From an uncultured bacterium (GTDB taxonomy: Bacteria > Zhuqueibacterota > QNDG01 > DSAB01), in assembly GCA_964651045.1 (NCBI GenBank), contig CAZYVD010000010.1:828-64827 (forward strand): DNA of 64,000 bases, in the 5' to 3' direction. Below, piece by piece: positions 15,981 through 62,776 of this stretch. The stretch's first letter is position 1. Each line of letters begins with the position of its first letter. The position numbers and the translations under genes are program-made. The notes under the pieces were generated by a model that was given only the letters and a program-made list of their open reading frames with translations, did not search any database and had not been told where the DNA came from.

Positions 15981-15996
15981 TGGCATGATGGTTGCA
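15981..15996 (+). promoter_or_regulatory. Sigma54 (-24/-12) promoter upstream of the hsp20-grpE-dnaJ-dnaK-clpB genes
   Basis: TGGCATGATGGTTGCA is near the consensus TGGCACGNNNNTTGCW with exact GG-N10-GC spacing; it follows a terminator and lies 48 bp before the hsp20 start. Confidence 0.75.
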
Positions 15997-47114: not shown

Positions 47115-48386
47115 TCACTTTCTTACTTTAACTGGTGCATCGTGAGCAAGCGTGTAGTTTCCTTTTGTGACTACAAGTTCTCCCGGTTTGAGATTGAACT
47201 TTGAACTCAATACTTCTTTATACATCTCATTTTCAAGACCTGTAGTCACATAACTCCACTTTGCCTTTCCATCTCTCACAATAAATACTACTTCACGCTG
47301 ATCCCTCAGAACAACCGCCTCCTTCGGCACAAGGAACCTCTCCTTATATATTTTTGCTACTATCTTTACATCTGCAGACATTCCAGACTTTATCCTGTAT
47401 CCTGGATTATCGATACAAATTGTTACACGACACATTCTCTTTTCCTGATCAATAATAGGATTTATCGAGATCACTTCTCCTCTGAATGTATCACCAGGAA
47501 AGGCGAGAAACTCTGCAGTTGCCTCCCGGCCGACCATGATCGATCCAATCTCACTCTCAAGAACATTTGCCTCTATTCTTATTTTTGAAAGATCTACAAG
47601 CTTAAAACACTCCCTACCACTGTTTACATACTGTCCCAAAAATACCTGCTGGTCACCAAGAATTCCTGAGAATGGGGCTCTGATTTCTGTGTTCAAAAGA
47701 TTGAATCTGGCACGCCTGAGAGATATTACCGCATCATCCAGACCGCTCCTAATTGAAAATCTATCTATTCGACTCTGGGCAACAAAATCTTTTGTCACAT
47801 CGTACCATATTTTGAATTTCGAAAACTCTTTCTCAGATATTTTTCCAGCCTCCTTCAAAGCCATAGCATTCTCATAACTCTGCCTCATCTTCTCTAAATA
47901 TACTGGATCTGATCTGTTTGAGTCAGTATCAGAGGGCATGAGAGAGAGGGTCCCTCCTGAGAACAACTTTTCTACAAAAGATGCCTGAGCCTTCTTCAGG
48001 TTGTTTTCGGCCTCTTCCAGATCGAGACGATATCTGCTGTCATCGATCTTAAAAATCATCTCCCCTTCTTTCACCTCAGAGCCCTCTTGCACCGGAAGCT
48101 CGACTATCCTTCCACTTACTCGTGGAATTATGGTCACCTCACTCCAGGGTCTTGCAACACCAGAGGCAGATACTCTGATTATTAGATCTCCAACAAATGC
48201 CGGCCTCGCCTCAACAATCACAGGATTTATAAACTTTGATTCATCTGTCTTGAATTCTACTGTCTTATCTGCCCTGTTCCTTGCCTCCTTCCTCTTTTGA
48301 ATAAAATACAATGACAGCAAAACAATAATAATTGTAGGTATTATCCATCTCAGTGAAGATTTTAAGATTTTAATAAATTTTTTCAT
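47115..48386 (-). CDS. RND periplasmic adaptor (membrane fusion protein)
   Basis: N-terminal TM, VSGRIVELPVQEGSEVKEG, TEIRAPFSG, IKSGMSADV, VPKEAV. Confidence 0.93.
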   Translation of the reverse strand: MKKFIKILKSSLRWIIPTIIIVLLSLYFIQKRKEARNRADKTVEFKTDESKFINPVIVEARPAFVGDLIIRVSASGVARPWSEVTIIPRVSGRIVELPVQEGSEVKEGEMIFKIDDSRYRLDLEEAENNLKKAQASFVEKLFSGGTLSLMPSDTDSNRSDPVYLEKMRQSYENAMALKEAGKISEKEFSKFKIWYDVTKDFVAQSRIDRFSIRSGLDDAVISLRRARFNLLNTEIRAPFSGILGDQQVFLGQYVNSGRECFKLVDLSKIRIEANVLESEIGSIMVGREATAEFLAFPGDTFRGEVISINPIIDQEKRMCRVTICIDNPGYRIKSGMSADVKIVAKIYKERFLVPKEAVVLRDQREVVFIVRDGKAKWSYVTTGLENEMYKEVLSSKFNLKPGELVVTKGNYTLAHDAPVKVRK

Positions 48387-48508
48387 GGCACACCCAACAA
48401 TTTTTGTTTGATTAATAACAGTGATGAGTAATTATCACTAATATTATAATTTATTGTAAAAAAATCAAGCTATAAATTATAATATTTTGGAAAAATAATG
48501 TGGATAGA

Positions 48509-49033
48509 TTAAAAAATAATTGCAGAAATGTGTGGCAGTTCTCTGAATTTATTATCATAATCGAGACCGTAACCAACAATGAATTCATCTGGTACAACAA
48601 AGCCTACATAATCTGCCCTAAATGGAATGGAACGACGAGAAGGCTTATCAAGCAGTACGCATGTCTTAAAGAGTGAGGGACTTTTCTCCTTTAGATGATG
48701 GGCAACAAAGTTGAGTGTTGTTCCCGTGTCAAGTATATCGTCTACAAGAAGCACCTGTTTGCCAGAGATTTCTGTTGAGATATCCCGTATCAGCTCAATC
48801 CTTCCGGATGGCTCGGTGCCAGAGCCATAAGATGAAACGGTCATAAAATCAAGCAGAAGAGAGAATCCGCTTCTGTAGAGTTCCCGCACAAGATCTGCCA
48901 TGAAAATAAAACTCCCCTTTAGAAGACCTATCACAACCAGATCTTTCTTTTTAAAATCTTTGATTATCAGCTCAGCAAGAGATTTAACGCACTCTCTTAT
49001 TTGAAACTCATCATATAGAAGCCTAAGGTTCAT
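48509..49033 (-). CDS. hpt: Hypoxanthine phosphoribosyltransferase
   Basis: GLLKGSFIFMADL, VLLVDDILDTGTT, FIVGYGLDY. Confidence 0.95.
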   Translation of the reverse strand: MNLRLLYDEFQIRECVKSLAELIIKDFKKKDLVVIGLLKGSFIFMADLVRELYRSGFSLLLDFMTVSSYGSGTEPSGRIELIRDISTEISGKQVLLVDDILDTGTTLNFVAHHLKEKSPSLFKTCVLLDKPSRRSIPFRADYVGFVVPDEFIVGYGLDYDNKFRELPHISAIIF

Positions 49034-50099
49034 CTCGCATTTCCAAATCTATTATTCCCGATTCATTTATTATCCTTATACCACTGTTCAACTCCATGGA
49101 TATCTCGTTCAGGTAATCAATTATTCTCTTTCTGCCCCTTCCATAAACACTCCGCGGCTGAAAATTTACCTTATAGTTATTCACATAAATTGGAATCAAA
49201 TGGCATGACAAAGTGTTGTATCCAAACCGTACTTTCAACAGCATTCCAAAATCAACATTTTTACTGTAAGATCCAAAAACATAATTGCCGAGACTGTATG
49301 CTATCAAACGGTTATTGTATATCTCAAATCCCTGGACAACATGGGGATGATGTCCGATGACAAGATCGGCTCCATATTCCACTGCCTTATGGGCCCAGTA
49401 TCTCTGGTATCCCTTGGGCCGATCCATGAGTTCGCCACCCCAATGAAAGGAAACAACCACAATATCTGCCTCCTCCCTCTTCATCCTCTCGATTCGGGCC
49501 CTTAATCTTTTATTCATTGGAAACGCAGTTCCACATTTTTTTGAGGATGCCCAGAAATCTGACGGGTACGTTAGTGAGTATGCGAGAAATCCAACCCTCC
49601 AACACCCTTTTTGTACTACGACCCCCTCCTCTGCACTCTCCAAATCCCTGCCTGCGCCACAGGAGGAGATATTCAATCTTTTGAGAACATTCAATGTGGA
49701 ATAAAGCCCCTCATATCCATAATCCAAAATATGATTGTTTGCCAGAGTCAATACATCGAAACCAGCCCTTAATACACCATCTGCATAATCTGTTGGTACC
49801 TTGAATCTATATTTCTTCTTTTCAAAATATGTTCCACCTTGTGTAAAAGGAGCTTCCAGATTTGCAACAGCAAAGTCGGCATTCAATATATAATTACGAG
49901 TGGAATCAAATGGATAGTCGACTCCCCTCTTATCAATTATAGGAAGAGCACTTCCACCCATCATCAAATCTCCTGCAGCAATAATCACAACAAACTCCGA
50001 AGAATCATCAGGGACTCTCTCGATACAAAAAGCCCTGCTATTTACATAACAGGAAAAGAGAAACAAAATGGAAAATATATTAACTAAAACTTTCAACAT
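49023..50099 (-). CDS. CapA family (poly-gamma-glutamate synthesis-like metallophosphatase)
   Basis: AAGDLM, ANLE, LANNHILDYG, SFHWG.E, IGHHPHVVQG, YSLGNYVF. Confidence 0.93.
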   Translation of the reverse strand: MLKVLVNIFSILFLFSCYVNSRAFCIERVPDDSSEFVVIIAAGDLMMGGSALPIIDKRGVDYPFDSTRNYILNADFAVANLEAPFTQGGTYFEKKKYRFKVPTDYADGVLRAGFDVLTLANNHILDYGYEGLYSTLNVLKRLNISSCGAGRDLESAEEGVVVQKGCWRVGFLAYSLTYPSDFWASSKKCGTAFPMNKRLRARIERMKREEADIVVVSFHWGGELMDRPKGYQRYWAHKAVEYGADLVIGHHPHVVQGFEIYNNRLIAYSLGNYVFGSYSKNVDFGMLLKVRFGYNTLSCHLIPIYVNNYKVNFQPRSVYGRGRKRIIDYLNEISMELNSGIRIINESGIIDLEMRDEP

Positions 50100-50122
50100 C
50101 TAACAAGGGAAAAAAGTGAAAA

Positions 50123-50527
50123 TCAAGATCTCTTTTTACTCTTTGACTCATCTTTTTTAGGGGTCTGAGCCTTTGGTTTTGCCGGTGCAGGAGGCTTCTT
50201 CTCTGCTGTCTTTTTCTTTTGTGATGTCTCCTTCTTTATCTTCTCAATCTCGGTCTCCTTTGCCTTCAGATCTGCCTTGAGTTGCTTAATCTCTGCAACA
50301 ATCTTTTTTATCCTGTCACTCGTGCCAACATCTGTCTGTTTCTTCTTTTCAAAGAGTTTGTATACCTCCTGTCCAAGAGTCGAATACTTCTTCTCCAGGC
50401 TTCTCTTGATATTGAGAATATCAACCTTTAACTTTCCTATTCTTGTGTACTCCTCTGTCTTCTCTGCCGCAACAGAAAGACCATCTTTAAGACTCTTTTT
50501 AATATTATCCCATATTGATGCTCCCAT
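50123..50527 (-). CDS. Hypothetical coiled-coil protein with Lys-rich tail
   Basis: ATG 50527 preceded by GGAGGAG; coiled-coil pattern. Confidence 0.7.
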   Translation of the reverse strand: MGASIWDNIKKSLKDGLSVAAEKTEEYTRIGKLKVDILNIKRSLEKKYSTLGQEVYKLFEKKKQTDVGTSDRIKKIVAEIKQLKADLKAKETEIEKIKKETSQKKKTAEKKPPAPAKPKAQTPKKDESKSKKRS

Positions 50528-50636
50528 GAAGACTCCTCCTATATTGATAAATTGGTCTGTTGATAAAATAAAAAGGGGACTCGAAAAAATCAAGTCCCAT
50601 CTTCTTTCAATGACTTTTTATTGGAATTAATTAAAG

Positions 50637-51158
50637 CTACTCTTTTGGAGAATCGACGAGTTCTACTGAAATCTTTTTGCTGCTTCCCATATAGGCCCAG
50701 ACATCGATTATATTAACATCGATTATCTTTCCCTGTTCGCCATCAAATGGAAGGTAATCATTTGTGGGAAATTTAGGTCTCATGAAGATATAGGTGGAAT
50801 CTGGCTCTATGCAGCCCAGCTTTTCAAACTCATACCCTATATCATTTAGCTCATAGGTCAGATCGTCTGTTCTGAAATAGATTACATGTTCGAGCCCATC
50901 TGGAGGTCCCTGCATGTGGGCGATTCCGTAAAACTCCAGTGCCTCTGGCTGAAAATTATACACAGTGATCTTAAACTTAACAACATTGACCTTTGTTGCC
51001 TCAAGCCCTGAAAAAGGAGGAGTAGCCGGAACATAATCTGTCCCTATATGTTCAATAAACACCTGTTTAGGAAGGAGGCTATCTTTAGGGGGATTCGATG
51101 GATAATTGCTGCAGCCAGCAATTAGAACCATTAGCACTACTATCAATCCTCTCTTCAT
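50637..51158 (-). CDS. Hypothetical lipoprotein
   Basis: Lipobox LIAGC; SD-like GGGGAG upstream. Confidence 0.7.
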   Translation of the reverse strand: MKRGLIVVLMVLIAGCSNYPSNPPKDSLLPKQVFIEHIGTDYVPATPPFSGLEATKVNVVKFKITVYNFQPEALEFYGIAHMQGPPDGLEHVIYFRTDDLTYELNDIGYEFEKLGCIEPDSTYIFMRPKFPTNDYLPFDGEQGKIIDVNIIDVWAYMGSSKKISVELVDSPKE

Positions 51159-51338
51159 GGTAATATCTCCCCATATGTGGTAAATTTTTCCTTATATAAA
51201 TAGATCATAAAATTCCATAAGTATCTAATAAATAATAATCTTACATGCAAACACAAGAACCGTTTTAAAATAGACTGCAAATTAGATACCACATGGGAAA
51301 TTATTACAGAAGTTTAAAATCTGGATATTTAACCTTAC

Positions 51339-51367
51339 AAAAACCGCCGGATTTTGTTGTCCAGCGG
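51339..51367 (-). terminator. Minus-strand intrinsic terminator in the large intergenic region
   Basis: Minus strand CCGCTGGA-caacaaaa-TCCGGCGG-TTTTT (one G-U pair). Confidence 0.55.
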
Positions 51368-51611
51368 CCTAAGGTGAGGGAGGAGAAAAATGATGTATAT
51401 CTAATCAGAATCTAACTTTTATAAGTGCAATTGTTATACCACTCCAATCCAAATTTTTCGAACCTGTATAATCTATTGTTATTATTAAAGCGAGCCTGTT
51501 TGGGAAAAATTGTTTATTAAATGGATATCCACGAAATGGCCGATTATCAACCAAAAATATTTTCAGGGTGGCTGTTTGTAAACAGCCGTTTCACATCAGA
51601 CCAGAATTTGC

Positions 51612-51640
51612 TTGACTGTTGGCGATTAATTTTGTATCTT
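51612..51640 (+). promoter_or_regulatory. Sigma70-type promoter of the Fe-S/metal cluster
   Basis: TTGACT (51612-51617), 17-bp spacer, TATCTT (51635-51640). Confidence 0.65.
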
Positions 51641-51641
51641 G

Positions 51642-51661
51642 TTACGAGCATATGCTCATAA
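51642..51661. promoter_or_regulatory. Palindromic operator, copy 1
   Basis: TTACGAGCATATGCTCATAA, 18/20 self-complementary, overlapping the predicted transcription start. Confidence 0.7.
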
Positions 51662-51712
51662 TATAGTTTGTAACAATGTAGAACCTATTATGATATATAT
51701 AAGGTTTAAATC

Positions 51713-52573
51713 ATGATCATTTCAATTGCAAGCGGAAAGGGTGGAACAGGAAAAACTACTGTTGCCACAAACCTTGCCTCCTCTATTTCAAACAGCAGTA
51801 TTACTTTCATCGACTGTGATGTAGAAGAACCCAACAGTCACCTCTTCCTCAGACCTGCTGTGGAAAAAGAACAGACATGCCTGACATTCATTCCGAAGGT
51901 CGATACAGAAAAGTGCACCCTTTGCGGCAAATGTTCAGAGCTGTGTCAATTCAAGGCCATAGTAAAAATTGCAGACACTATGCTTGTATTTCCTGAACTG
52001 TGTCATGGATGTGAAGGATGCAAATTGATCTGTCCGGTAGATGCAATTTCGGACGACCAGAAACAGATCGGTACGATATCGGTGGCAACCTCAGGCAGGA
52101 TTCGTTTTGTAGGCGGAAGGCTCAAAATCGGAGAGGCCCTTTCTCCACCACTTATCAGGGAGGTCATACAGACAGCATTAAAAGAAAATAAATCCGATAT
52201 AAATATTATCGATTCGCCTCCGGGTACTTCATGTCCTGTGATAGAATCTATTAAGGTATCAGATTTTGTTGTTCTTGTAACAGAGCCCACTCCCTTTGGA
52301 CTAAACGACCTCAGGCTGGCCGTAGAAACCGTCAGGGTTCTTGGAATTCCGTTCGGAGTTGTCATAAACAGATCAACAATCGGGAATAACAATATCACCA
52401 AATACTGTGATGAACAGTCAATTCCTATCCTCCTCGAGATACCAGACGACAGAAAGATTGCCGAGGCCTACTCAAGGGGATATCTAATTATTGATCATCT
52501 CCCCCAATACAAAAGCCATTTTGAGCTCCTATTAGATAATATAAAAAAGATCAGCGATTCCGATAAGGAGTAG
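51713..52573 (+). CDS. MinD/CobQ-like P-loop ATPase with two 4Fe-4S motifs
   Basis: SGKGGTGKT, DCDVEEPN, CTLCGKCSELC, CHGCEGCKLIC, DSPPGTSC, VTEPTPFG. Confidence 0.92.
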   Translation: MIISIASGKGGTGKTTVATNLASSISNSSITFIDCDVEEPNSHLFLRPAVEKEQTCLTFIPKVDTEKCTLCGKCSELCQFKAIVKIADTMLVFPELCHGCEGCKLICPVDAISDDQKQIGTISVATSGRIRFVGGRLKIGEALSPPLIREVIQTALKENKSDINIIDSPPGTSCPVIESIKVSDFVVLVTEPTPFGLNDLRLAVETVRVLGIPFGVVINRSTIGNNNITKYCDEQSIPILLEIPDDRKIAEAYSRGYLIIDHLPQYKSHFELLLDNIKKISDSDKE

Positions 52574-52580
52574 TAGATAG

Positions 52581-53441
52581 ATGAAAGAGATAGTGATAAT
52601 AAGTGGAAAGGGCGGAACAGGTAAAACAACAATCACCGCCTCCCTCGCATCCCTGATTCCCGATAAGGTTATTGCAGACTGTGATGTTGATGCTGCAGAT
52701 CTTCATCTTCTTCTCGATCCAGAGATTAAGGAGAGAAACGACTTTTATGGCGGTGTAAAGGCCTCAATAGATCTCGACAAGTGTACGGGCTGTGGCAGAT
52801 GTCTGGAAGTATGTAGATACGATGCAATATCTTCCGATTTTATAGTAAACGATATTAACTGTGAGGGATGCGGAGTATGTCCCTATTTTTGCCCTGAAGA
52901 TGCCATAACTCTTATCGACCGTCACTCGGGAGAATGGTATATCTCTGAAACAAGATTCGGACCAATGGTCCATGCAAGACTCGGAATAGCAGAAGAAAAT
53001 TCTGGAAAGCTGGTCAGCCTGATCAGGCGCCAGGCAAAAACCATTGCTGAGGATAGAGGGTTTGACACGATCCTTATAGACGGGTCGCCAGGAATAGGGT
53101 GCCCGGTAATAAGTTCTATCACAGGTGCATCAATAGTTGTTGTTGTTACAGAACCAACCATATCCGGAATACACGATCTTAAAAGAGTCATATCTTTAAA
53201 CCAGCACTTCAAGATAGAATCTGTAGTCTTAATCAACAAGTCGGACATAAACGAAGAGATGACAGGAAAGATAAGAAAAAGAGCTGAAGAACAGGGGATC
53301 GAAGTAATAGGTATGATTCCCTATGACCCTGTTGTCACAAGGGCAATGGTTCATAAAAAGACAGTTGTAGAATTTACAAACAGCAAAGTGGCAATGGAAA
53401 TCATCAAGGCAGGAGATGTGATTTTTAATAAAATAAGATAA
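52581..53441 (+). CDS. MinD/CobQ-like P-loop ATPase with two 4Fe-4S motifs, paralog
   Basis: SGKGGTGKT, DCDVDAAD, CTGCGRCLEVC, CEGCGVCPYFC, DGSPGIGC. Confidence 0.92.
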   Translation: MKEIVIISGKGGTGKTTITASLASLIPDKVIADCDVDAADLHLLLDPEIKERNDFYGGVKASIDLDKCTGCGRCLEVCRYDAISSDFIVNDINCEGCGVCPYFCPEDAITLIDRHSGEWYISETRFGPMVHARLGIAEENSGKLVSLIRRQAKTIAEDRGFDTILIDGSPGIGCPVISSITGASIVVVVTEPTISGIHDLKRVISLNQHFKIESVVLINKSDINEEMTGKIRKRAEEQGIEVIGMIPYDPVVTRAMVHKKTVVEFTNSKVAMEIIKAGDVIFNKIR

Positions 53442-53485
53442 TAAAGGAACTATATACAGCTTTCAGCGTTATGTATTAAGATATG

Positions 53486-53505
53486 TTTTGAGTATATGTT
53501 CAAAA
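53486..53505. promoter_or_regulatory. Palindromic operator, copy 2, directly before the DUF134 gene
   Basis: TTTTGAGTATATGTTCAAAA; same length and dyad core as copy 1. Confidence 0.65.
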
Positions 53506-53515
53506 CGAGGTTTTT

Positions 53516-53869
53516 ATGCCCCGACCAAAAAAATGCCGATGGATAAGCGCCCGACCAGGTGCTTCATTTTTCAAGCCACAGGGCATTCCGCTCAGAATGC
53601 TCGATCAGGTTTGTCTGGAGATGGATGAACTTGAGGCAATTCGCCTCGCAGATCTTGAAGGTCTCAGTCATGAACTCGCGGCAAAAAAGATGAATGTATC
53701 GAGAGCAACTTTCGGGCGAATAGTTGCAGGTGGCAGAAAAAAAGTAGCAGAAGCCCTCGTTGTAGGAAAGGCAATACGAATCGAGGGAGGAGAGGTAGAG
53801 CTGCGTCCTCCCCTTCCGATAGACTGGCCAGGGGGGCCTCATGGACGTGGAAAGGGACCATGGTTTTAA
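53516..53869 (+). CDS. DUF134 (UPF0251) putative DNA-binding protein
   Basis: MPRPKKCR...FKP.GIP...DELEAIRLADLEGLS...A.KMNVSRATFGRI...RKKVAEALV.GKAIRIEGG. Confidence 0.92.
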   Translation: MPRPKKCRWISARPGASFFKPQGIPLRMLDQVCLEMDELEAIRLADLEGLSHELAAKKMNVSRATFGRIVAGGRKKVAEALVVGKAIRIEGGEVELRPPLPIDWPGGPHGRGKGPWF

Positions 53870-53887
53870 TCTGAGGAACCGCAACCG

Positions 53888-54334
53888 ATGAAGAACAGAG
53901 AAGAAGATATATTCGAGAGGCTTGAAGCCTACTTTATGGGTCAGGCTTCTGAACGATTTTCAGAAAAAGTAATCTCGCTTGCCTATGATCCTATAAATGT
54001 TGGAGAAATAAAAAATCCTGATGGTCTCGGATTCATCAAAGGCCCATGCGGAGATAGAATGGCAATCTTTTTAAAAATTACAGAGGGAAAAATCTCGGAA
54101 GCAAAATTTCTTGCCGACGGATGCGGAGCCACAATAGCATGCGGCTGTGCTGTAACAGATCTGGCCATTGGGAAGAGCCCCATAGAGGCAGAATCGATAA
54201 ATGTTCTGGAGATACTGAGATATCTAAATGATCTTCCAGCTTCCCATGAACACTGTGCAGTACTCGCAGTGAATACTCTCAAAGAGGCTTTAAAAAACAT
54301 GAAAAAAATAGGTAGTTTAAAAATAAGGAGGTAA
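53888..54334 (+). CDS. IscU/NifU N-terminal-like Fe-S scaffold
   Basis: P.NVG, GPCGD, DGCG..IAC, HCA.LA: three conserved Cys. Confidence 0.88.
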   Translation: MKNREEDIFERLEAYFMGQASERFSEKVISLAYDPINVGEIKNPDGLGFIKGPCGDRMAIFLKITEGKISEAKFLADGCGATIACGCAVTDLAIGKSPIEAESINVLEILRYLNDLPASHEHCAVLAVNTLKEALKNMKKIGSLKIRR

Positions 54335-54337
54335 ATC

Positions 54338-54667
54338 ATGCCAAGAGGAGATGGAACAGGCCCCATGGGAATGGGACCAATGACAGGTAGGGCGGCCGGC
54401 TACTGCGCTGGCTACTCGGTGCCGGGATTCATGAATCCCTATGGAGGAAGATTTGGTGGAGGATTTGGCAGAGGAAGAGGATTTGGATGGAGAAGATGGG
54501 CTGGTTTTCCTTCGGCCTACCAGTATCCTCTTCCCTATGGAACAGGCTTTACTCAGGATCAGGAGATCGAACTCCTTCAAAATCATGCGAAGATATTGAA
54601 AGATCAGCTCGAGAACATCGAAAAACGGATCTCAGATCTTGAGAGCAAGTCAGCCAAAGAGGCATAG
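54338..54667 (+). CDS. DUF5320 family Gly/Arg-rich protein
   Basis: MPRGDGTGPMGMGPMTGRAAGYCAG, GRGRGFG, C-terminal coiled coil. Confidence 0.88.
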   Translation: MPRGDGTGPMGMGPMTGRAAGYCAGYSVPGFMNPYGGRFGGGFGRGRGFGWRRWAGFPSAYQYPLPYGTGFTQDQEIELLQNHAKILKDQLENIEKRISDLESKSAKEA

Positions 54668-54677
54668 TAGTTCATGA

Positions 54678-54709
54678 GGATCCCGGTGTTAGTAAAAACG
54701 CCGGGATCC
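54678..54709. repeat. GC-rich intra-operon hairpin followed by an A-tract
   Basis: GGATCCCGGTGTT...AACGCCGGGATCC followed by 10 A; not a canonical terminator on either strand. Confidence 0.6.
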
Positions 54710-54741
54710 AAAAAAAAAATTAAAAATGAGGATTAAAAGGC

Positions 54742-54993
54742 ATGCCGACCTATGAATATGAATGCACCGTATGCGGACACCGATTCACAAAATTTCAATC
54801 AATAAATGATGAGCCCGTAAAAAAATGCCCTGAGTGTTCTGGTAAGGTTAACAGGTTGATCTCTGGCGGAATGGGAGTGATATTCAAGGGCTCAGGATTT
54901 TATTCCACAGACTACAAGAAAAAGAGCAGCGGTGATTCATGCTGTAGTCAGGGAAATCAGTGCGAAAATCCAAAACGCTGCTGTGGAAGATAA
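54742..54993 (+). CDS. FmdB-family zinc ribbon protein with Cys-rich tail
   Basis: [11 protein letters not shown]...CPEC...[11 protein letters not shown]...SCC...C...CCGR. Confidence 0.88.
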
Positions 54994-55013
54994 TCTGCAG
55001 GCTGGATTATACC

Positions 55014-55394
55014 ATGTCTGTATCTATTGATAAAAATATCTGCAGGGGATGTGGAGTATGTATAGAAAGCTGTCCTGCTGGTGCCATCAAAATGGAGAGA
55101 ACTATTGTTGTTGACCCAGAAAAATGTACTGAATGCAGCAGATGTATGAATGCCTGCCCATTCGGTGCTATCACCTTACAGAACAACTCTCCTGCTGACA
55201 GACCGCATTCTCATTCTGAATCAGCACAAATATTTCTTCCAAATAGTACCAGAATCAAAGTCCAGAAACCCCTGCAACCGGATAAATCTTACAATGATTC
55301 GCTAAACGACCTTCGTGCTCAAAAGGAGAATCTCGAGAGACGCCTTGAAGAAGTTCAGAAGAGAATTGACAGATTAAAACATTGTTTAAAATAA
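55014..55394 (+). CDS. 2x[4Fe-4S] ferredoxin fused to a C-terminal coiled coil
   Basis: CRGCGVCIESCP, CTECSRCMNACP; tail LNDLRAQKENLERRLEEVQKRI. Confidence 0.85.
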   Translation: MSVSIDKNICRGCGVCIESCPAGAIKMERTIVVDPEKCTECSRCMNACPFGAITLQNNSPADRPHSHSESAQIFLPNSTRIKVQKPLQPDKSYNDSLNDLRAQKENLERRLEEVQKRIDRLKHCLK

Positions 55395-55410
55395 AGAAAG
55401 GAGGCATATT

Positions 55411-55638
55411 ATGCCAAGAGGAGATGGAACTGGTCCTGCAGGACAGGGCCCTGGAACAGGAAGAGGAATGGGAAGGGGAGGCGGAGGTAGAGGAAGAATG
55501 GGCGGTAATCGCCCTGGAGCAGGTCCTGGCGGAAGCTGTGTATGTCCAAGCTGCGGTGCAAAGGTAGTCCACAAACAGGGAGAGCCTTGCTATACAATCA
55601 GCTGTCCCCAATGTGGAGCAAAGATGATGAGAGAATAG
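55411..55638 (+). CDS. DUF5320-like Gly-rich protein with a Cys-rich zinc-finger-like C-terminus
   Basis: MPRGDGTGP...GRGRMGG...CVCPSCG...PC...CPQCG; SD AGGAGG. Confidence 0.82.
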   Translation: MPRGDGTGPAGQGPGTGRGMGRGGGGRGRMGGNRPGAGPGGSCVCPSCGAKVVHKQGEPCYTISCPQCGAKMMRE

Positions 55639-55650
55639 AGGAGAAAACAT

Positions 55651-56421
55651 ATGAAGATAGCCATAACCTCTCAGGGAACCGATCTGAATGCAGAAATCGA
55701 CCCTCGCTTTGGCAGATGTAGCTACTTTATCATCTACGATACTGAAAAGGAAAATTATGAGGTAGTTGAAAATTCGAGCATAAATCTTGGTGGTGGTGCA
55801 GGAATCCAGGCAGCCCAGACAATCTCTGAAAATGGAGTGAGAGTTCTGCTCACAGGCAATGTAGGACCAAACGCTTTTCAGACACTTTCTGCTGCATCCA
55901 TCGAAATATATACCGGCCTGAGTGGAAAAATTTCAGAAGTTGTAGAAAAGTTCAAGAGTGGGAACTTGGAAAAGAGTTCTGCCCCATCGGTGGATTCCCA
56001 TCACGGTTTGAACAAATCGCAGGCTTCGGTATCGGCCCAGGTGTCGAAAAAACGAATAGCAGTCGCCTCAGAAGATGACAGGGGGCTCGAATCAAACGTA
56101 AGCGCTCATTTTGGAAGATGCCCCTACTACACAATGGTCGAAGTCGAGGGTGACAGGATCGTACTCAGCTATAAGGTAGAGAATCCCTTTTTTCATGCAC
56201 ATGGACAGCCCGGTCAGGTTCCAACATTTATCCGTGACCAGGGATCCAATGTTATAATAGCCGGAGGCATGGGCCAGCGTGCCGTTGAATTTTTTAACCA
56301 GTTTGGAATAGAGGTAGTAACGGGTACAGCAAGAAAGGTAAACGATGTCGTGAACCAATACATTCAGGGAAGAATAAAGGGCTATACCCCCTGTGACCAC
56401 GAACATGAACCTTGTGATTGA
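55651..56421 (+). CDS. Tandem NifB/NifX (FeMo-cofactor-binding-like) domain protein
   Basis: Two repeats: RFGRCSYF...GGAG...GNVGPNA and HFGRCPYY...GGMGQRA; C-terminal CDHEHEPCD. Confidence 0.9.
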   Translation: MKIAITSQGTDLNAEIDPRFGRCSYFIIYDTEKENYEVVENSSINLGGGAGIQAAQTISENGVRVLLTGNVGPNAFQTLSAASIEIYTGLSGKISEVVEKFKSGNLEKSSAPSVDSHHGLNKSQASVSAQVSKKRIAVASEDDRGLESNVSAHFGRCPYYTMVEVEGDRIVLSYKVENPFFHAHGQPGQVPTFIRDQGSNVIIAGGMGQRAVEFFNQFGIEVVTGTARKVNDVVNQYIQGRIKGYTPCDHEHEPCD

Positions 56422-56468
56422 TTAACCCAATCTATGGAATAAAAATTAAGGGAAAGGAAATAGTCTCT

Positions 56469-57293
56469 ATGAATAAGGATCAGGAAAAAGTTAAGACAAT
56501 GGAAGAACAGAACCGCCGAATCGACGAAAATTTAAAAAAGATAAAACACAGGATAGTCATATTCAGCGGCAAAGGAGGAGTCGGCAAGAGTACAGTTGCC
56601 GTGAATTTAGCCTACTCACTCACGCTTAAGGGGCTTAAAGTCGGCCTTTTAGATGCAGACATCACAGGGCCAAACATACCAAAAATGATCGGTCTCAAAG
56701 GATTTCCGAGAATCGACCCGGAAGAAAAAAACATTCTTCCCCAAGAAAAAGACGGGTTATATGTTATCTCTATCGCCCCAATGGTTCCTCAGGATGCTCC
56801 TGTCATCTGGCGTGGGCCGCTGCGATCCGGCGCAATTACTCAATTTCTATCAGATGTGGTCTGGGGAGATCTTGACTTTCTACTTGCAGATCTTCCACCC
56901 GGCACAGGAGACGAGGTCTTGACTACTGCTCAGAAAATGATTCCTCAAATGGCAATAATAGTAACGACTCCGCAGGAGGTATCCCTGATAGACTGCCGAA
57001 GGGCAGTAAACATGGCAAAGAAGCTGAATATCGGGAAAATAGGCGTTGTGGAAAACATGTCGGGTCTTCTCTGTCCGCACTGTGGAAAAGAGATTGATCT
57101 GTTCGATTCTGGCGGTGGTGAAAAGATGGCAAACGAGATGGGGGTCACATTTCTTGGCCGAATTCCCATTGAGATCGAAACTCGCAAAGGAGGCGATTCG
57201 GGAAATCCTGTTGTCCTCTCAAACAAGAAAAGCGGTACTGCCGACTCGTTTGCTCTGATTGCAGAAAATACAATAAAACTCGTATCACTGTGA
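56469..57293 (+). CDS. mrp: Mrp/NBP35 (ApbC-like) Fe-S carrier ATPase
   Basis: SGKGGVGKS, LDADITGP, VIWRGP, DLPPGTGD, TTPQ, ENMSG..CPHC. Confidence 0.93.
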   Translation: MNKDQEKVKTMEEQNRRIDENLKKIKHRIVIFSGKGGVGKSTVAVNLAYSLTLKGLKVGLLDADITGPNIPKMIGLKGFPRIDPEEKNILPQEKDGLYVISIAPMVPQDAPVIWRGPLRSGAITQFLSDVVWGDLDFLLADLPPGTGDEVLTTAQKMIPQMAIIVTTPQEVSLIDCRRAVNMAKKLNIGKIGVVENMSGLLCPHCGKEIDLFDSGGGEKMANEMGVTFLGRIPIEIETRKGGDSGNPVVLSNKKSGTADSFALIAENTIKLVSL

Positions 57294-57299
57294 TGAAAA

Positions 57300-57935
57300 A
57301 TGAGCAGACAAATGGAAAATAAAATTCATCAGAAAAAACAACCTCTCCCAACATGCGACCTGTGCAAATCGAAAAAATGTAGGGAGGGAGAAGACTGCTT
57401 CTCCATGTCCAACCAGATAGTTTCAGAATATACAGGAGATAGACTCAAACTTGCACGAGTCTCATCTATGATCGAGGGCAGATACTATATGAAAAAGACC
57501 CGTCTGGAGGAGATAATTCTTTTTTCAAATGAAATGGGATACAAGAGGCTTGGGATCGCATTCTGTATTGGACTTTCCGATGAGGCAAGTATGCTTGCCA
57601 AACTTCTCAGAGACAAATTCGAGGTCGTTTCTGTATGCTGCAAGGTTTGCGGAATAGAGAAAAGTTATTTTAACTTCGAGAAAATAGATCCCGGAAGTGC
57701 TGAGTCGATGTGCAATCCAATAGGCCAGGCAATCCTTCTCAATAGTGCAGAGACCGATCTAAATATCATCTGCGGACTTTGCATTGGTCACGATATACAA
57801 TTCACACAATTTTCAAAGGCTCCTGTAACAACCTACATCGTCAAAGACCGCCTGCTTGCCCACAACACTGCAGGCATGCTCTACTGCGGATATTTGAAAA
57901 AAAGAATCCAAAAAAACGGCAGGAGAGAGAAATGA
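57300..57935 (+). CDS. DUF1847 domain protein
   Basis: C..C...C..GEDC, TRLEE, GIAFCIGL, CCKVCG, CNPIGQA, GLCIGHD, KDR.LAHN. Confidence 0.9.
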   Translation: MSRQMENKIHQKKQPLPTCDLCKSKKCREGEDCFSMSNQIVSEYTGDRLKLARVSSMIEGRYYMKKTRLEEIILFSNEMGYKRLGIAFCIGLSDEASMLAKLLRDKFEVVSVCCKVCGIEKSYFNFEKIDPGSAESMCNPIGQAILLNSAETDLNIICGLCIGHDIQFTQFSKAPVTTYIVKDRLLAHNTAGMLYCGYLKKRIQKNGRREK

Positions 57936-58960
57936 CAGAAATAGTATCTGTTATCAAACATTCATTAATGATAACAACGTTTGTCTTTGTAATGATGCTG
58001 ATAGTAGACTACATCAATGTCATCACATCAGGACGGTTATCGGTTTTAATGAAAGGAGGAAAATGGCGGCAGTACATGACAAGCTCCTTTTTAGGTGCAA
58101 CTCCTGGCTGTCTCGGATCATTCATGAATGTCTCATTCTATGTACATGGACTCATAGGTTTCGGGGCGATCGTGGGAGGAATGATTGCAACATCTGGGGA
58201 CGAGGCCTTTGTCATGCTTACCCTCTTTCCTGGAAAAGCGCTTATCCTCTTTGGACTTCTGATGATAATGGGCATTATATTTGGGTTTGTAGCCGACAGG
58301 ATCGCAAGTGTTCTTAAAATCACACCGTGCCAGGAGTGCGACCTTCAACAGATACATACAATCGAAACCTGTCAGTGTTTTGATAAAACCGAGCTTTCCA
58401 AAAACTTTTTTAATATATCCATCCAACGAGCAGTACTTGTTCTCGGTACAGTTATTATCATTGTTGCACTGACAACAGGGATCATCGGACCCGAGGAGTG
58501 GAACTGGGAGAAAGTCACACTGACGATTCTCGTGGCTGTGGCTGCAGTCATTGTGGGAAGTGTACCCAATCATTATCTCAGAGAACACATCTGGGATCAT
58601 ATTGTAAGAAAACATCTTTGGAAAATCTTTCTCTGGTCACTACTTGCACTCTTTGTTATAAACATTGGGTTAGAACACTGGAACCTGGAATCCTTTATCA
58701 AGAGTCACATGGGGTGGGTGCTCATCATCAGTGGTATTGCCGGAATCATCCCTGAATCCGGTCCGCACATGATTTTTGTCATAATGTTTGCTCAGGGTCT
58801 AATCCCATTCTCTGTGCTTCTTACGAGTTCTTTTGTTCAGGACGGCCATGGAATGCTGCCGCTTCTATCCTATTCAGTAAGGGATTCTGTGATGATCAAG
58901 GCCTTTAATCTTGTTTTTGGACTCGTGGTCGGTGGACTGCTCTTCGCAATCGGATGGTAG
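57932..58960 (+). CDS. Putative manganese/metal transporter (DUF2899-like)
   Basis: LGATPGCLG, IATSGDEAFVM, IPESGPH, QDGHGMLPLL; multiple TM segments. Confidence 0.8.
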   Translation: MTEIVSVIKHSLMITTFVFVMMLIVDYINVITSGRLSVLMKGGKWRQYMTSSFLGATPGCLGSFMNVSFYVHGLIGFGAIVGGMIATSGDEAFVMLTLFPGKALILFGLLMIMGIIFGFVADRIASVLKITPCQECDLQQIHTIETCQCFDKTELSKNFFNISIQRAVLVLGTVIIIVALTTGIIGPEEWNWEKVTLTILVAVAAVIVGSVPNHYLREHIWDHIVRKHLWKIFLWSLLALFVINIGLEHWNLESFIKSHMGWVLIISGIAGIIPESGPHMIFVIMFAQGLIPFSVLLTSSFVQDGHGMLPLLSYSVRDSVMIKAFNLVFGLVVGGLLFAIGW

Positions 58961-58978
58961 ACAGGAGTCGGAATAGAT

Positions 58979-59932
58979 ATGATAATATTCGGCCCAGTTC
59001 CATCCAGAAGACTCGGAAGAAGCCTTGGAATAAACAACATACCATACAAGGCATGTACATATTCATGCATCTACTGCCAGCTTGGAAAAACCAAAAAGTT
59101 AACTGCAGAGCCTCAGCAATATTACGATCCAGAACAGATTCTTACCATGACAGCAGATTCAGTAGATAAATTACAAGAAAATAAAGAGCATATAGACTAC
59201 ATCACCTTTGTTCCTGATGGAGAACCCACTCTCGATATTAATCTTGGAAGAGAGATAGAGCTGCTCAAGGGGCTTGGGATAAAAGTTGCCGTGATAACAA
59301 ATTCCTCTCTTATATGGAGAGATGATGTGCGGCAAAGGCTTTCAAAGGCCGATCTGGTATCTTTGAAGGTAGACTCATTAACAGAACAGTCGTGGCACAG
59401 AATCAACAGGCCGCATCCTCTTCTCAATATCGATGATATTAAAGAATCTATGATCTCATTTGCAAAGGATTACCGCGGCACCATTATAACAGAGACCATG
59501 CTTGTGGGCGGAATAAATGATGACTTAGAAGAGATAAAAAGGATAGGTGAATTCTTGTTAAAGCTCAGGCCCAAAACCGCATATCTCTCTATTCCAACAC
59601 GTCCTCCAGCAGAAAAATGGGTCAAGAGTCCGAGTCCTGCCCTACTCGCCCAGTCATTTAAGACTCTAAAGGATTCAGGCCTCTTTCCAGAATATCTAAC
59701 AGAATACGAGGGAAATCTTTTCTCGAAAAGAAATGACCTCAGAGAAGACCTTTTAAGCATTACTTCAGTCCATCCCATGCGCGAGGAGGGTGTTAGAGAA
59801 TTTCTGTTAAAAAATGACGGTGACTGGTCACTGGTAGATGAACTCATTAGAGACGGGCTTATTGTTAAAAAAGAATATGATGGGAAGATCTTTTATCGCA
59901 GAAGATTTTCAGGGAATGACAAAAAACTTTAA
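58979..59932 (+). CDS. Radical SAM protein
   Basis: FGPVPSRRLGRSLGIN, CTYSCIYC, GEPTL. Confidence 0.93.
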   Translation: MIIFGPVPSRRLGRSLGINNIPYKACTYSCIYCQLGKTKKLTAEPQQYYDPEQILTMTADSVDKLQENKEHIDYITFVPDGEPTLDINLGREIELLKGLGIKVAVITNSSLIWRDDVRQRLSKADLVSLKVDSLTEQSWHRINRPHPLLNIDDIKESMISFAKDYRGTIITETMLVGGINDDLEEIKRIGEFLLKLRPKTAYLSIPTRPPAEKWVKSPSPALLAQSFKTLKDSGLFPEYLTEYEGNLFSKRNDLREDLLSITSVHPMREEGVREFLLKNDGDWSLVDELIRDGLIVKKEYDGKIFYRRRFSGNDKKL

Positions 59933-59942
59933 AAGAGGAAAA

Positions 59943-60389
59943 ATGAAAAACAAAAAAGAGAATAAACTAAAAAGGCTGGCAAGATCATTCTACGGTGCAT
60001 TAAAGAGCCTCGGCTTTGCACTGCCTGCCATTGTAGTAGTGATTCTTTTAACCGGTCTTTTCAGGACATTCATCTCAAAAAAGATGATAGTGTCGATATT
60101 CAGTGGACATGGACTGCTCGATACACTGGTTGGATCAATATCAGGCAGCATATCTGCAGGCAACCCGATCACAAGTTATATAATCGGAGGAGAACTTTTA
60201 AAAAACAGTGTGAGCCTCTTTGCAGTCACCTCATTCATTGTGGCATGGGTCACTGTGGGAATAATCCAGCTCCCTGTGGAGTCTGCATTCCTCGGTAAAA
60301 GATTTGCCGTTGTGCGAAACGGCGTAAGTTTTATCCTCTCTATTCTCGTATCGATTGCTACGGTACTGACATTGAGGACAATCTCATGA
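59943..60389 (+). CDS. Small permease (DUF318/ArsP-like, half-size)
   Basis: GSISAGNPITSYIIGGELL..GV-type motif, QLPVE..FLGKRFAV.RN. Confidence 0.72.
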   Translation: MKNKKENKLKRLARSFYGALKSLGFALPAIVVVILLTGLFRTFISKKMIVSIFSGHGLLDTLVGSISGSISAGNPITSYIIGGELLKNSVSLFAVTSFIVAWVTVGIIQLPVESAFLGKRFAVVRNGVSFILSILVSIATVLTLRTIS

Positions 60390-60922
60390 AAAACAATAAA
60401 CCTGAAAACGCAAAGAAAAAAACCAGAAAGGGAAATTACAGGTACTACCTTCTCCTCGCCAGCCTCTTCCTTTATGCGATCCTTTTTATTTTAAAACCAG
60501 AAGATACACTGAAGGCAATGAAGACTTCCCTTGCCACATTGATTCAGATCGTTCCGATCCTTCTCGGAGTCATACTTTTCATGGGAATGTTCAACTACTT
60601 TATAAATCCTAAAAAACTTTCATATTATCTCGGAAAAGAATCCGGAGTCAAGGGATGGTTTCTTGCAGTATCTGCAGGAGTTTTAAGCCACGGCGCAATT
60701 TATGTGTGGTACAGCCTGTTAAAAGAGTTGAGGGAACATGGAATGAGGAGCGGTCTGGCTGCAGTCTTTCTGTACAACAGGGCAATAAAGATTCCCTTCA
60801 TACCAGTCATGGTATATTACTTTGGAATCAAGTATGTAATTGTACTGCTTCTCTATATGATAATCTTGTCTGTGTTAGAAGGAAAAATTGTGGAGGTATT
60901 AATAGATGAAAAAACTCACTAA
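60386..60922 (+). CDS. Small permease (DUF318/ArsP-like partner)
   Basis: LGKESGVKGW, GVLSHGAIYVWY.LL.EL...GM, FLYNRAIKIP; overlaps the previous gene by 4 bp. Confidence 0.7.
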   Translation: MKNNKPENAKKKTRKGNYRYYLLLASLFLYAILFILKPEDTLKAMKTSLATLIQIVPILLGVILFMGMFNYFINPKKLSYYLGKESGVKGWFLAVSAGVLSHGAIYVWYSLLKELREHGMRSGLAAVFLYNRAIKIPFIPVMVYYFGIKYVIVLLLYMIILSVLEGKIVEVLIDEKTH

Positions 60923-61613
60923 TATTAACTTCATCATCGATGCAATTCTATTCATCATTGTAATGGCAATGGGTGGAATCGGATTTCTGATGAAATTCAT
61001 ACTTATCCCCGGTACTGAACGCTGGGATGTCTATGGAAGCAATGTTGAGCTCAAACTCTGGGGATGGGACAGACACCAGTGGGGGTCTCTTCATCTCATT
61101 CTAGGATATGTTTTCCTCGCTCTTCTTCTGCTTCACATCATCCTCCACTGGAATCAGATCAAATGTATTTTCAATAATATGGTTAGAAGAAGGGCTCACA
61201 GAGTAATCATTACACTTATCTTTTTAATATTGAGCCTTGTTGTTTTTCTCTTCGCATTCTTTGTTCCATTTGACGTAATTGCTGTTGAAAGCGGGCAGGG
61301 AAGGAAAATAGAACCCCAAGACCAAATTAAAACGCACTCCCAGCAGTCAATAAAAGATTCGCAAGAGAAATCATCAAGAAGCAGTGGAAAACAGAAAGGT
61401 CAAAACAGGACTGTAATGGTCAATGGATCAATGACCCTTGAAGAAGCTGGAGAAAAATATCGAATACCTGCAGACACCCTTAAAAGATTGCTCAACATCC
61501 CGCCCGAAACATCCAGTAGCCAGAGACTCGGAATACTGAGAAAAATGTACGGCTTTCGCATGAGCGATGTTGAGCGCTCAATCGAAAAATATATAGAATC
61601 AAAAAGAGAGTAA
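60906..61613 (+). CDS. DUF4405-like membrane protein
   Basis: WGSLHLILG...LHIILHW (His in TM helices); C-terminal GSMTL.E...Y.IP domain. Confidence 0.78.
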   Translation: MKKLTNINFIIDAILFIIVMAMGGIGFLMKFILIPGTERWDVYGSNVELKLWGWDRHQWGSLHLILGYVFLALLLLHIILHWNQIKCIFNNMVRRRAHRVIITLIFLILSLVVFLFAFFVPFDVIAVESGQGRKIEPQDQIKTHSQQSIKDSQEKSSRSSGKQKGQNRTVMVNGSMTLEEAGEKYRIPADTLKRLLNIPPETSSSQRLGILRKMYGFRMSDVERSIEKYIESKRE

Positions 61614-61624
61614 AAAATTGAGCT

Positions 61625-62266
61625 ATGAAAATAACCATAATATATGACAACACACAGCATCAGGAAGAGCTTCAGCCCGACTGGGGTTTTTCAGCTCTTG
61701 TTGAACTCGATAACAACTCTAAAATACTATTCGATGCAGGAGCAGATGGCTTGATCCTTCTATCCAATATGGAAAAACTCGGAATAGATCCTAAATCAAT
61801 TAGTACTGTATTCATCTCCCATGCACATTACGACCATATAGGTGGACTTTCAACTTTCCTCAATACCAATAATGATGTAAGGGTATTTGTACCTGTTTCA
61901 CTAAAGGGAATCCACAGAGCAAGAGAGGTGATCTCCATAGTAGGTCCAATGGAAATAGGCGAAAATCTATTCTCAACAGGCGAGCTGGATAGAATCGAAC
62001 AGTCTCTTGTTGTAAGAATCGAAAAAGGAGTCCTGCTCATAGTTGGCTGCTCGCATCCTAAGATGGAACACATCTTCAGTGCCGCCGAACAATATGGAAA
62101 TATTCGCGCAATAGTTGGAGGCATGCATGGACTGAGGAAATTTGATCTGTTCAGAGATTTAGAGCTCATCTGCCCCACACATTGCACACAGAACAAGGAT
62201 GAAATAGAATATATGTTTCCTAAAAAGTATATAGAAGGCGGAGCAGGAAAGGTTATATCATTTTAA
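61625..62266 (+). CDS. MBL-fold metallo-hydrolase
   Basis: WGFS.L, LFDAG, SHAHYDHIGG, GCSHP, GGMH, PTHCT. Confidence 0.9.
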   Translation: MKITIIYDNTQHQEELQPDWGFSALVELDNNSKILFDAGADGLILLSNMEKLGIDPKSISTVFISHAHYDHIGGLSTFLNTNNDVRVFVPVSLKGIHRAREVISIVGPMEIGENLFSTGELDRIEQSLVVRIEKGVLLIVGCSHPKMEHIFSAAEQYGNIRAIVGGMHGLRKFDLFRDLELICPTHCTQNKDEIEYMFPKKYIEGGAGKVISF

Positions 62267-62293
62267 TCCTGATATCATAGAAAGGAGCAAACC

Positions 62294-62737: not shown

Positions 62738-62776
62738 TAGATACTCATCTTACTATCACCATGAAAGGAATGAATA

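Follow-up and report, generated by a model that had tools for sequence, protein, structure and literature searches.

Gene cluster and candidate operator sites

The window analysed here, a 64,000-nt stretch of contig CAZYVD010000010.1 from an uncultured bacterium, carries a gene cluster (51713–57935) whose genes all lie on the + strand and encode, among others, MinD-type ferredoxin ATPases, a NifX-like protein and a 117-residue protein of the DUF134/UPF0251 family (Table 1). Two copies of a palindrome accompany the cluster: candidate operator O1 starts 1 nt past the TATCTT element of the predicted cluster promoter, whereas the weaker operator O2 lies 10 nt 5′ of the DUF134 ATG (53516). From the comparative evidence set out below, DUF134 is very probably a self-regulating repressor of this anaerobe iron–sulphur (Fe-S), ‘orange protein’-type gene cluster, and the sequence that it would most likely bind is the 20-bp palindrome TTATGAGCATATGCTCATAA.

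O1 and O2 are the sole matches in the 64 kb at up to 3 mismatches to the consensus of the original prediction, which was made from the sequence of the window, and no match occurs in 100 shuffles. An independent position weight matrix, derived from 36 unique sites at other loci with the window left out, gives O1 28.7 bits and O2 20.0 bits, against a maximum of 14.3 bits in 20 shuffled windows, which confirms both dyad sites at the positions first assigned to them. In the closest relative, L001, O2 is kept at the same place as TTTTGAGCATATGTTCATAA. A third candidate, a partial core at 35284 (35280–35299) inside the open reading frame (ORF) 34819–35655, scores 10 bits, within the range of shuffles, and was rejected.

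Co-occurrence of the operator and DUF134

The association of the motif with DUF134 was examined in both directions. In the forward test, a metagenome scan provided 80 loci encoding DUF134 relatives of 52–87% identity, and the 90 nt upstream of each start were inspected. A site of at least 14 bits is present in 71 of these loci (74 sites, 455 kb), and in 61 of the 80 a site lies no more than 30 nt from the start codon. The palindrome appears as (T)TATGAGCATATGCTCATAA or ATGAGCATATGCTAATAA, and does so in both AT-rich and GC-rich contigs. Where DUF134 stands behind other genes, the site is found at the operon promoter instead; in one such locus, laid out like the window, it precedes a MinD-ferredoxin gene by 34 nt and DUF134 by 2019 nt.

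In the reverse test, exact ATGAGCATATGCTMATAA was sought in 185,579 species genomes, one per species, giving at least 120 blocks of up to 8 kb each. Among the matches listed, the DUF134 profile is positive in 93 of the 120 blocks, and DUF134 starts 6–75 nt downstream of the motif in 87 of them. The other 27 blocks listed include at least eight sites directly before NifX-like, MinD-ferredoxin, DUF5320 or Zn-ribbon genes, some that precede ARMT1/DUF89, molybdate/tungstate-type solute-binding, DUF169-CoaE, PocR or C_GCAxxG_C_C genes, and three chance-like sites inside long ORFs. Judged by record titles, the blocks among the matches listed come from at least 15 phyla, all bacterial (Desulfobacterota, Ignavibacteriota, Bacteroidota, Planctomycetota, Chloroflexota, Spirochaetota, Caldisericota, Omnitrophota, Bacillota, Verrucomicrobiota, Acidobacteriota, Zixibacteria, Nitrospirota, Actinomycetota and others). 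Across 1.3 Mb of loci, 208 sites reach at least 18 bits, 151 of which adjoin DUF134 and 32 other families of the cluster. The original prediction hinged on motif and DUF134 accompanying one another in other genomes, and they do so strongly in both directions; across species, the operator is conserved upstream of the regulator's own gene or operon.

Perfect operators also stand directly before a molybdate/tungstate-type SBP_bac_11 gene (L152, 581–598), an ARMT1/DUF89 gene (L089, 3897–3916), a DUF169-CoaE fusion gene (L187, 3353–3372) and a C_GCAxxG_C_C gene (L201, 1964–1981), and these four families are possible extra members of a predicted regulon. In L065, an operator is found near a DUF1847 gene. 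The IMG/VR viral contigs L081–L085 hold five exact motif matches, none with DUF134. In L084, TTGACA-17-TATAAT and then the operator precede a 122-residue ORF without a Pfam match, and the flanks of L081 recur in L085 in the opposite orientation. Pfam gave no match for the three neighbouring viral ORFs scanned (L081, L082 and L084), and the viral matches are either unexplained or due to chance.

Fold and conserved residues of DUF134

The window protein belongs to the family named COG1342, UPF0251 or PF02001, matching PF02001 at 85.1 bits (cut-off 27) over residues 3–95. It consists of an N-terminal MPRPxxxR arm, a helix-turn-helix (HTH) resembling region 4 of sigma-70, and a Pro/Gly/Arg/Trp tail. 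The HTH-like segment suspected at the outset is borne out as a three-helix HTH in both the alignment and an AlphaFold2 model (predicted local distance difference test score 83.7; helices 36–47, 52–58 and 63–83, flanked by short strands). In Foldseek superpositions the three-helix core falls on region 4 of SigB, SigE and SigR and on the DeoR DNA-binding domain with root-mean-square deviations of 0.7–0.9 Å (40–48 residues aligned, probability ∼1.0, E 0.05–0.5), and the best sequence match in the PDB is the DeoR HTH (7bhy, profile E 0.0016); no solved structure of DUF134 was found in the PDB search. The closest sequence and structure matches to the helix core are thus DeoR of Bacillus subtilis and SorC HTHs together with sigma-70 region 4, and DeoR/SorC-type HTHs have been seen on operator DNA (7bhy and 8r7y). 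DUF134 differs from these proteins in its own invariant R-P-x4-R arm and small beta-sheet, and it has neither the SorC sugar-binding domain nor sigma regions 2 and 3, the alignable part being only ∼40–48 residues. Some DUF134 relatives exceed the Pfam threshold for Sigma70_r4 or r4_2, for example at 34.9 bits in the clade that begins MPRPPIERA.

Residues R3, P4, R8, S62, R63, T65, F66 and G67 do not vary among 58 sequences, one of them the window protein, which accordingly carries both the conserved R-P-x4-R arm and the S-R-x-T-F-G helix. The invariance of S62, R63, T65, F66 and G67 in the helix of the window clade matches the invariant operator of that clade. The family is large: a word-indexed search returned 2697 homologues, and at 50% identity there are 5173 clusters at E ≤ 1e-3 or 3764 at E ≤ 1e-10.

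Position of the operator on predicted promoters

When the window is aligned with five other operon-type loci, the only invariant parts are TTGAC, the −10 element (TAT..T) and the operator, and this phylogenetic footprint of six loci backs the TTGACT-N17-TATCTT promoter of the original prediction. The promoter of the cluster is a predicted sigma-70-type promoter. A promoter scan lists both of its elements and, in addition, an alternative promoter, TTGTTA(51639)-17-TATAGT(51667), whose spacer is taken up by O1. Among 135 unique upstream contexts, the commonest register is that of the window itself, with TTGAC ∼30–31 nt and the −10 element (TAnnnT) ∼7–8 nt before the operator, which then spans the start point to about +20. 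In a second register TTGAC lies 7–8 nt before the operator, which then occupies the 17-nt spacer and provides the −10 element with its right arm (CATAAT or TATAAT). Further minor registers are present, and in Clostridia TTGACA lies within the operator itself. The operator thus falls on part of a predicted promoter (−35, spacer or −10) or on its start site, and this constant placement over the core promoter in varying registers fits a repressor rather than a promoter element or an upstream activator site.

The mechanism proposed for DUF134 is a classical one. DUF134 would act as a small dimeric HTH repressor; O1 would lie over the start point of the sigma-70-type promoter from which the whole + strand cluster is expressed, and DUF134 bound there would block RNA polymerase, so that negative feedback would act on the cluster and on DUF134 itself, with the weaker copy O2 just before the DUF134 gene. 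We infer that the palindrome is bound by DUF134, in dimeric form, and that binding represses transcription, and we consider it likely, from the comparison of loci, that DUF134 binds the palindrome and represses.

It is rather unlikely that DUF134 binds the palindrome as an activator, a dual regulator or a sigma-like promoter-recognition protein instead of a simple repressor. Its HTH does resemble sigma-70 region 4, the reader of −35 elements, the Clostridial operator contains TTGACA and in many loci an operator arm is the −10 element, such that DUF134 and polymerase might cooperate; moreover, the analogous cluster of Desulfovibrio vulgaris is positively controlled by OrpR (PMC8359166). However, the perfect dyad suggests a dimer and not a sigma factor, the presence of at least three registers relative to −35/−10, all over the core promoter or start, is typical of occlusion and not of class I or II activation, and the good consensus −35 and −10 elements leave no need for an activator.

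Two or three sites are held by 15 loci, some of them in tandem 34 bp apart. Pairs at exactly 34 bp occur in L143 (3189/3223), L178 (769/803) and L200 (6728/6762), and the tandem operators of L169, L192, L137 and L100 have spacings of 56, 76 and ∼121–127 bp. The recurrence of such tandem arrangements suggests that two dimers may bind cooperatively in some lineages.

Co-variation of recognition helix and operator

The strongest pointer to DUF134 as the binder comes from distant members on plasmids. Each is preceded by a palindrome of the plan TTAT-nnnnCATATGnnnn-ATAA, and positions 5–8 and 13–16 of the palindrome vary together with the recognition helix. The helix SRATFGR of the window clade goes with operator arms TGAGC..GCTCA; SRQTLAN of the E. 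coli and Klebsiella IncF plasmids, which have two tandem sites, with TTGGC..GCCAA; SRATFQA, IQS, VQK and VQQ of Clostridia with TTGAC..GYCAA; SRPTLSR and SRATFAR of Phocaeicola and L051 with TGAAC..GTTCA; and SRGTIGR of L057 with TGTGC..GCACA. Altered helices with correspondingly altered palindromes thus mark the clades of enterobacterial plasmids, Clostridia and Bacteroidales. Loss of Arg68 accompanies the change of the operator from TGAG to TTGR. The minimal unit among the loci consists of the operator, DUF134 and a NifX-like gene. Clade-specific pairs of helix and operator offer a ready, testable specificity code, and the two-gene DUF134-NifX cassettes of E. coli and Klebsiella plasmids an easy experimental system.

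These observations bear on whether another regulator encoded elsewhere, of the CRP/FNR type or a global iron or Fe-S regulator, binds the palindrome, with DUF134 being merely the best-conserved member of its regulon. FNR-type boxes share the spacing of the TGAGC-N4-GCTCA and TTGAC-N4-GTCAA dyads (a 5-4-5 dyad), a Crp/Fnr family gene lies just upstream of a DUF134::NifX fusion in Pusillibacter, and the link of DUF134 to the site is comparative only. Nevertheless, hardly any variation is seen in the central CATATG, whereas a CRP/FNR box is unconstrained at its centre; 87 of the 120 exact matches listed directly precede DUF134, in at least 15 phyla; and operator changes follow the DUF134 helix, with no other DNA-binding or regulator gene common to the loci examined. 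The mobile two-gene cassettes on enterobacterial plasmids bring their own operator variant, which together with the co-variation makes an unlinked regulator unlikely; we regard this alternative as very unlikely overall.

That the palindrome acts in RNA as a 5′ stem-loop, or is a promoter-embedded sequence without a dedicated binding protein, is highly unlikely. In favour of this reading, the commonest register would make the site the 5′-terminal ∼15 nt of the mRNA, the symmetric clade-specific changes also keep hairpin potential and O1 folds better than its shuffles (z −4.6). Against it, hairpin stability is low (−5.3 and −2.1 kcal/mol), and where the site is in the spacer or holds the −35 element, as in other registers and in Clostridia, it would not be transcribed. 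Moreover, the sequence is conserved and not only the pairing (the loop CATATG is invariant), and asymmetric sites such as ATGAGCATATGCTAATAA break pairing yet are kept in a whole clade. A known RNA element was rejected, as Rfam gave only two sub-threshold chance matches in 50500–56000 at E ≤ 1 and the hairpins are weak.

Several observations weigh against DUF134 being the repressor that acts at this operator. Support for its binding to the operator is wholly comparative. Nine of the 80 loci in the forward test lack a site of at least 14 bits, mostly on short or truncated contigs and one with a different palindrome, and the survey covers bacterial DUF134 loci. The promoter scan of the region found promoter-like sites no more numerous than in shuffles, so that the promoter assignments, which are consensus matches, rest on conservation and not on the scan. 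For O2, neither the scan nor the alignment with L001 gave a convincing −35/−10 pair, and an internal promoter at this site was rejected on that ground. The co-variation of helix and operator is confounded with phylogeny, several variant clades comprising one to three sequences. Finally, the Foldseek E-values are weak because only ∼45 residues align, and the Sigma70_r4_2 match of the window protein is below the Pfam cut-off (19.5 versus 25.7 bits).

Variant operators and plasmid-borne cassettes

A perfect palindrome, TTGTGTGCGATTGCACACAA, is found in L057 (1170–1189), 12 nt before the start of the DUF134 with the SRGTIGR helix, and is a candidate for a diverged specificity. Two-gene DUF134-NifB/NifX cassettes occur on conjugative IncF plasmids of Enterobacteriaceae, namely L206 (E. 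coli pKTa005_1, 3944–3991) and L207 (K. quasipneumoniae pG4584_81.9Kb, 3943–3991), each with tandem TTATTGGCATATGCCAATAA-type operators 28–29 bp apart. The cassette is a plasmid-borne, facultative-aerobe form of the ‘anaerobe’ system; in Klebsiella it adjoins PaaI thioesterase, Dps and ArsR genes. DUF134 matches in PLSDB amount to 196 records. In L209, a Salinivibrio plasmid (about 2850–2910 and 3554–3601), ∼3.5 copies of a 14-nt unit, gtgtaacgtacggc, stand before DUF134, and the strongest operators precede the NifX-like gene and not DUF134.

Possible signal

The original prediction of an autoregulatory repressor–operator pair defining a regulon is largely supported by co-occurrence, promoter overlap and helix co-variation, whereas the metal or Fe-S sensing that it held possible is not supported as a function of the N-terminal Cys that it pointed out. 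At position 7 the family has C, S, M, I, T, W, E or K, and entire clades begin MPRPPIERA or MGRPHKKRF, so that this Cys cannot be the metal or Fe-S ligand of the family. The window protein has Cys7 and Cys33, neither of which is conserved, and the alignment contains no invariant Cys or His; DUF134 thus does not carry the conserved Cys/His ligands of a metal or Fe-S regulator.

The ligands of NifX-family domains are Fe-S or Fe-Mo-S species. DUF134 most often has a NifX-like gene as its neighbour: one is present in 119 of 173 DUF134 loci, and in 77 it is the next downstream gene. Fusion to a Nitro_FeMo-Co domain is seen in ∼10 of 161 unique DUF134 proteins, and many DUF134 relatives end in a CxxC..CxxC ribbon and/or a Gly/Arg-rich tail; the window protein is without a ribbon or a NifX-like domain. 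In view of these neighbours, fusions and tails, sensing is proposed to occur via partner modules, and the NifX-like domain is a better sensor candidate than the N-terminal Cys. The signal is speculatively the load of Fe-S or metal–sulphur cofactor, or redox state, read via a NifX-like partner or domain, a Zn-ribbon or a Gly/Arg tail. More specifically, we put forward tentatively, as something possible but doubtful, that DUF134 and its NifX-like partner form a two-part sensor, in which the cofactor-binding module, a Zn-ribbon or a cationic Gly/Arg tail reports redox state or the load of Fe-S, thioferrate or Mo/W-S cofactor and so switches DUF134 on or off its operator. If true, the two-part sensor would be an ancient, horizontally mobile feedback circuit for ORP-type metal–sulphur trafficking in anaerobes, conserved across at least 15 phyla with an almost unchanged operator; enterobacterial conjugative plasmids would carry the circuit as well. 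Our confidence in any particular signal is much lower than that in binding and repression by DUF134.

Comparison with known systems

The genes of the ‘orange protein’ (ORP) complex of D. vulgaris have been described (PMC6345978), and its orp operons have sigma-54 promoters activated by OrpR (DVU2106), an enhancer-binding protein with an Fe-S PAS sensor (PMC8359166; PMC3897727) that its authors report to be restricted to delta-Proteobacteria (PMC8359166). By Pfam, the window cluster contains the ORP gene set, with counterparts in D. vulgaris Hildenborough of the two MinD-like ferredoxin ATPases (Orp3/Orp4), the NifX-like protein (Orp5/7/8) and the Mrp/NBP35 protein (Orp9, MrpORP). Parts of the window proteins match NCBIfam MrpORP (NF041136), although these matches are partial and all below the equivalog cut-off, and a DUF134 operon of Peptoclostridium includes an MrpORP by RefSeq annotation. 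Both clusters are anaerobe-specific and have a dedicated local regulator (PMC8359166, PMC6345978).

The two systems differ in that the Mrp and NifX-like parts are separate adjacent genes in the window but one fusion in Orp9, and that the window adds IscU-like, DUF5320, Zn-ribbon and DUF1847 genes to the ORP set. OrpR is a sigma-54 activator, whereas the window regulator is an unrelated 117-residue HTH protein with predicted repression at a sigma-70-type promoter. Upstream of the cluster (51159–51712) there is no + strand −24/−12 match for sigma-54, on which ground sigma-54 control as in D. vulgaris was rejected, and no sigma-54 activator was found among the Pfam-scanned ORFs of 47115–61613 (ORFs 61625–63844 lying outside the scan). 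Together with the sigma-70-type promoter, these absences point to DUF134 as a different and much more widespread control of similar genes.

IscR and SufR are Fe-S cluster-sensing autorepressors of Fe-S biogenesis operons. DUF134 is like them in being a small HTH protein within the Fe-S-related operon that it would control, with palindromic operators over the promoter, and would share dimerization and negative feedback from Fe-S status. In contrast, IscR and SufR are of Rrf2 and DeoR-type winged-helix folds, whereas DUF134 has a sigma-70-r4-like HTH; DUF134 is without conserved Cys ligands, so that a cofactor would sit on a partner or fused domain, and its operator is unrelated in sequence to theirs.

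A further likeness is to IssA of Pyrococcus furiosus, a NifX-like thioferrate storage protein with a tail that is Pro-rich and then cationic and Gly/Arg/aromatic (PMC5524996). The commonest DUF134 partner has the same IPR003731/Nitro_FeMo-Co domain, and a tail of the same chemical character is found on the window DUF134 (RPPLPIDWPGGPHGRGKGPWF) and on DUF5320, a likeness that is compositional only. IssA differs in that it is not a regulator.

A literature search, with subscription journals and regulon databases outside its reach, found no functional study of DUF134/UPF0251/COG1342 and no earlier description of the operator motif as a regulatory site; a mention of UPF0251 in a Rex paper proved to be a secondary mutation only. 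For all its size, the DUF134/UPF0251 family carries no annotation beyond ‘predicted DNA-binding’. Giving it a precise operator, a regulatory mechanism and a set of target genes would make a testable transcription factor out of a domain of unknown function. It would also supply the missing regulator for ORP-type clusters outside the delta-Proteobacteria, the group to which OrpR, the sole regulator known, is reportedly confined, and unite MinD-ferredoxin ATPases, NifX/IssA-like, DUF5320, Zn_ribbon_8 and DUF1847 proteins, with DUF169, DUF89/ARMT1 and C_GCAxxG_C_C proteins as possible further members, as one co-regulated system, which is probably concerned with the handling of Fe-S or metal–sulphur cofactors.

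Other genes and features of the locus

The features of the cluster are collected in Table 1. The first ATPase has partial NCBIfam MrpORP and MinD matches, and its family also follows the operator in L002–L004 and L107; DUF5320 proteins are found behind operators in L065, L076, L122 and L146. The Zn_ribbon_8 protein has a counterpart in the similar CxxC..CxxC module to which many DUF134 proteins are fused. The NifX-like protein shows a partial MrpORP match.

Table 1. Operators, predicted promoter and genes of the DUF134 cluster in the window
Feature	Position	Strand	Evidence or remark
−35 element TTGACT	51612..51617	+	TTGAC invariant in six operon-type loci
−10 element TATCTT, 17-nt spacer	51635..51640	+	TAT..T conserved in six-locus alignment
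Operator O1, TTACGAGCATATGCTCATAA	51642..51661	none	Covers predicted operon transcription start; invariant block in six-locus alignment
MinD/CbiA-type P-loop ATPase with 2x[4Fe-4S] ferredoxin insert (Orp3/Orp4-like)	51713..52573	+	Pfam CbiA, ParA, Fer4
Second MinD/CbiA-type ATPase with 2x[4Fe-4S] ferredoxin insert	52581..53441	+	Pfam, NCBIfam
Operator O2, TTTTGAGTATATGTTCAAAA	53486..53505	none	Weaker site; conserved in L001
DUF134/UPF0251, proposed repressor	53516..53869	+	Pfam, alignment, AlphaFold2 model, Foldseek
NifU_N/IscU-like Fe-S scaffold	53888..54334	+	Pfam
DUF5320 protein, Gly/Arg/aromatic-rich N-terminal half	54338..54667	+	Pfam, sequence
Zn_ribbon_8 (FmdB-type) protein	54742..54993	+	Pfam
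2x[4Fe-4S] ferredoxin-domain protein	54960..55394	+	Pfam
75-residue ORF, DUF5320-like N-terminus and C4 zinc ribbon	55411..55638	+	Sequence, Pfam
Tandem NifX/NifB-like (Nitro_FeMo-Co) protein, Orp5/7/8- or IssA-like	55651..56421	+	Pfam, two stretches, E 5e-49
Mrp/NBP35/ApbC-type Fe-S carrier ATPase	56418..57293	+	Pfam PF10609, E 3e-93
DUF1847 Cys-rich protein, last gene of cluster core	57300..57935	+	Pfam

The 75-residue ORF was left uncalled by gene tools and fills an apparent 256-nt gap between the ferredoxin and NifX-like genes. It reads MPRGDGTGP...GRG...CVCPSCG...CPQCG, and its DUF5320 match (E 6e-5) is below the cut-off; the DUF134 proteins of L051, L125, L128 and L175 carry the same DUF5320-like/C4-ribbon module as a C-terminal fusion. 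Just after the DUF5320 gene, a GC-rich inverted repeat (GGATCCCGG...CCGGGATCC, followed by A10) is present at 54678–54719 (+), and is terminator-like on the − strand alone, where no gene ends. Downstream of the cluster lie ArsP-type permeases and a radical-SAM protein, and the + strand ORFs 59838–60389 and 60386–60922 match the ArsP_1 permease profile in its N-terminal and its C-terminal half, respectively, as in a split or frameshifted gene.

Sigma-54-like −24/−12 elements (TGGTAT-N5-TTGCA) occur on the − strand at 51276–51291 and 51426–51441, facing the − strand ORF 50637–51158, which has no Pfam match, and also at 15981–15996 and 12812–12827. Within the window, 39 sigma-54-like matches were found at up to 2 mismatches, versus 23.9 ± 4.9 in shuffles, which suggests that sigma-54 promoters may be in use by the organism, though not for the DUF134 cluster.

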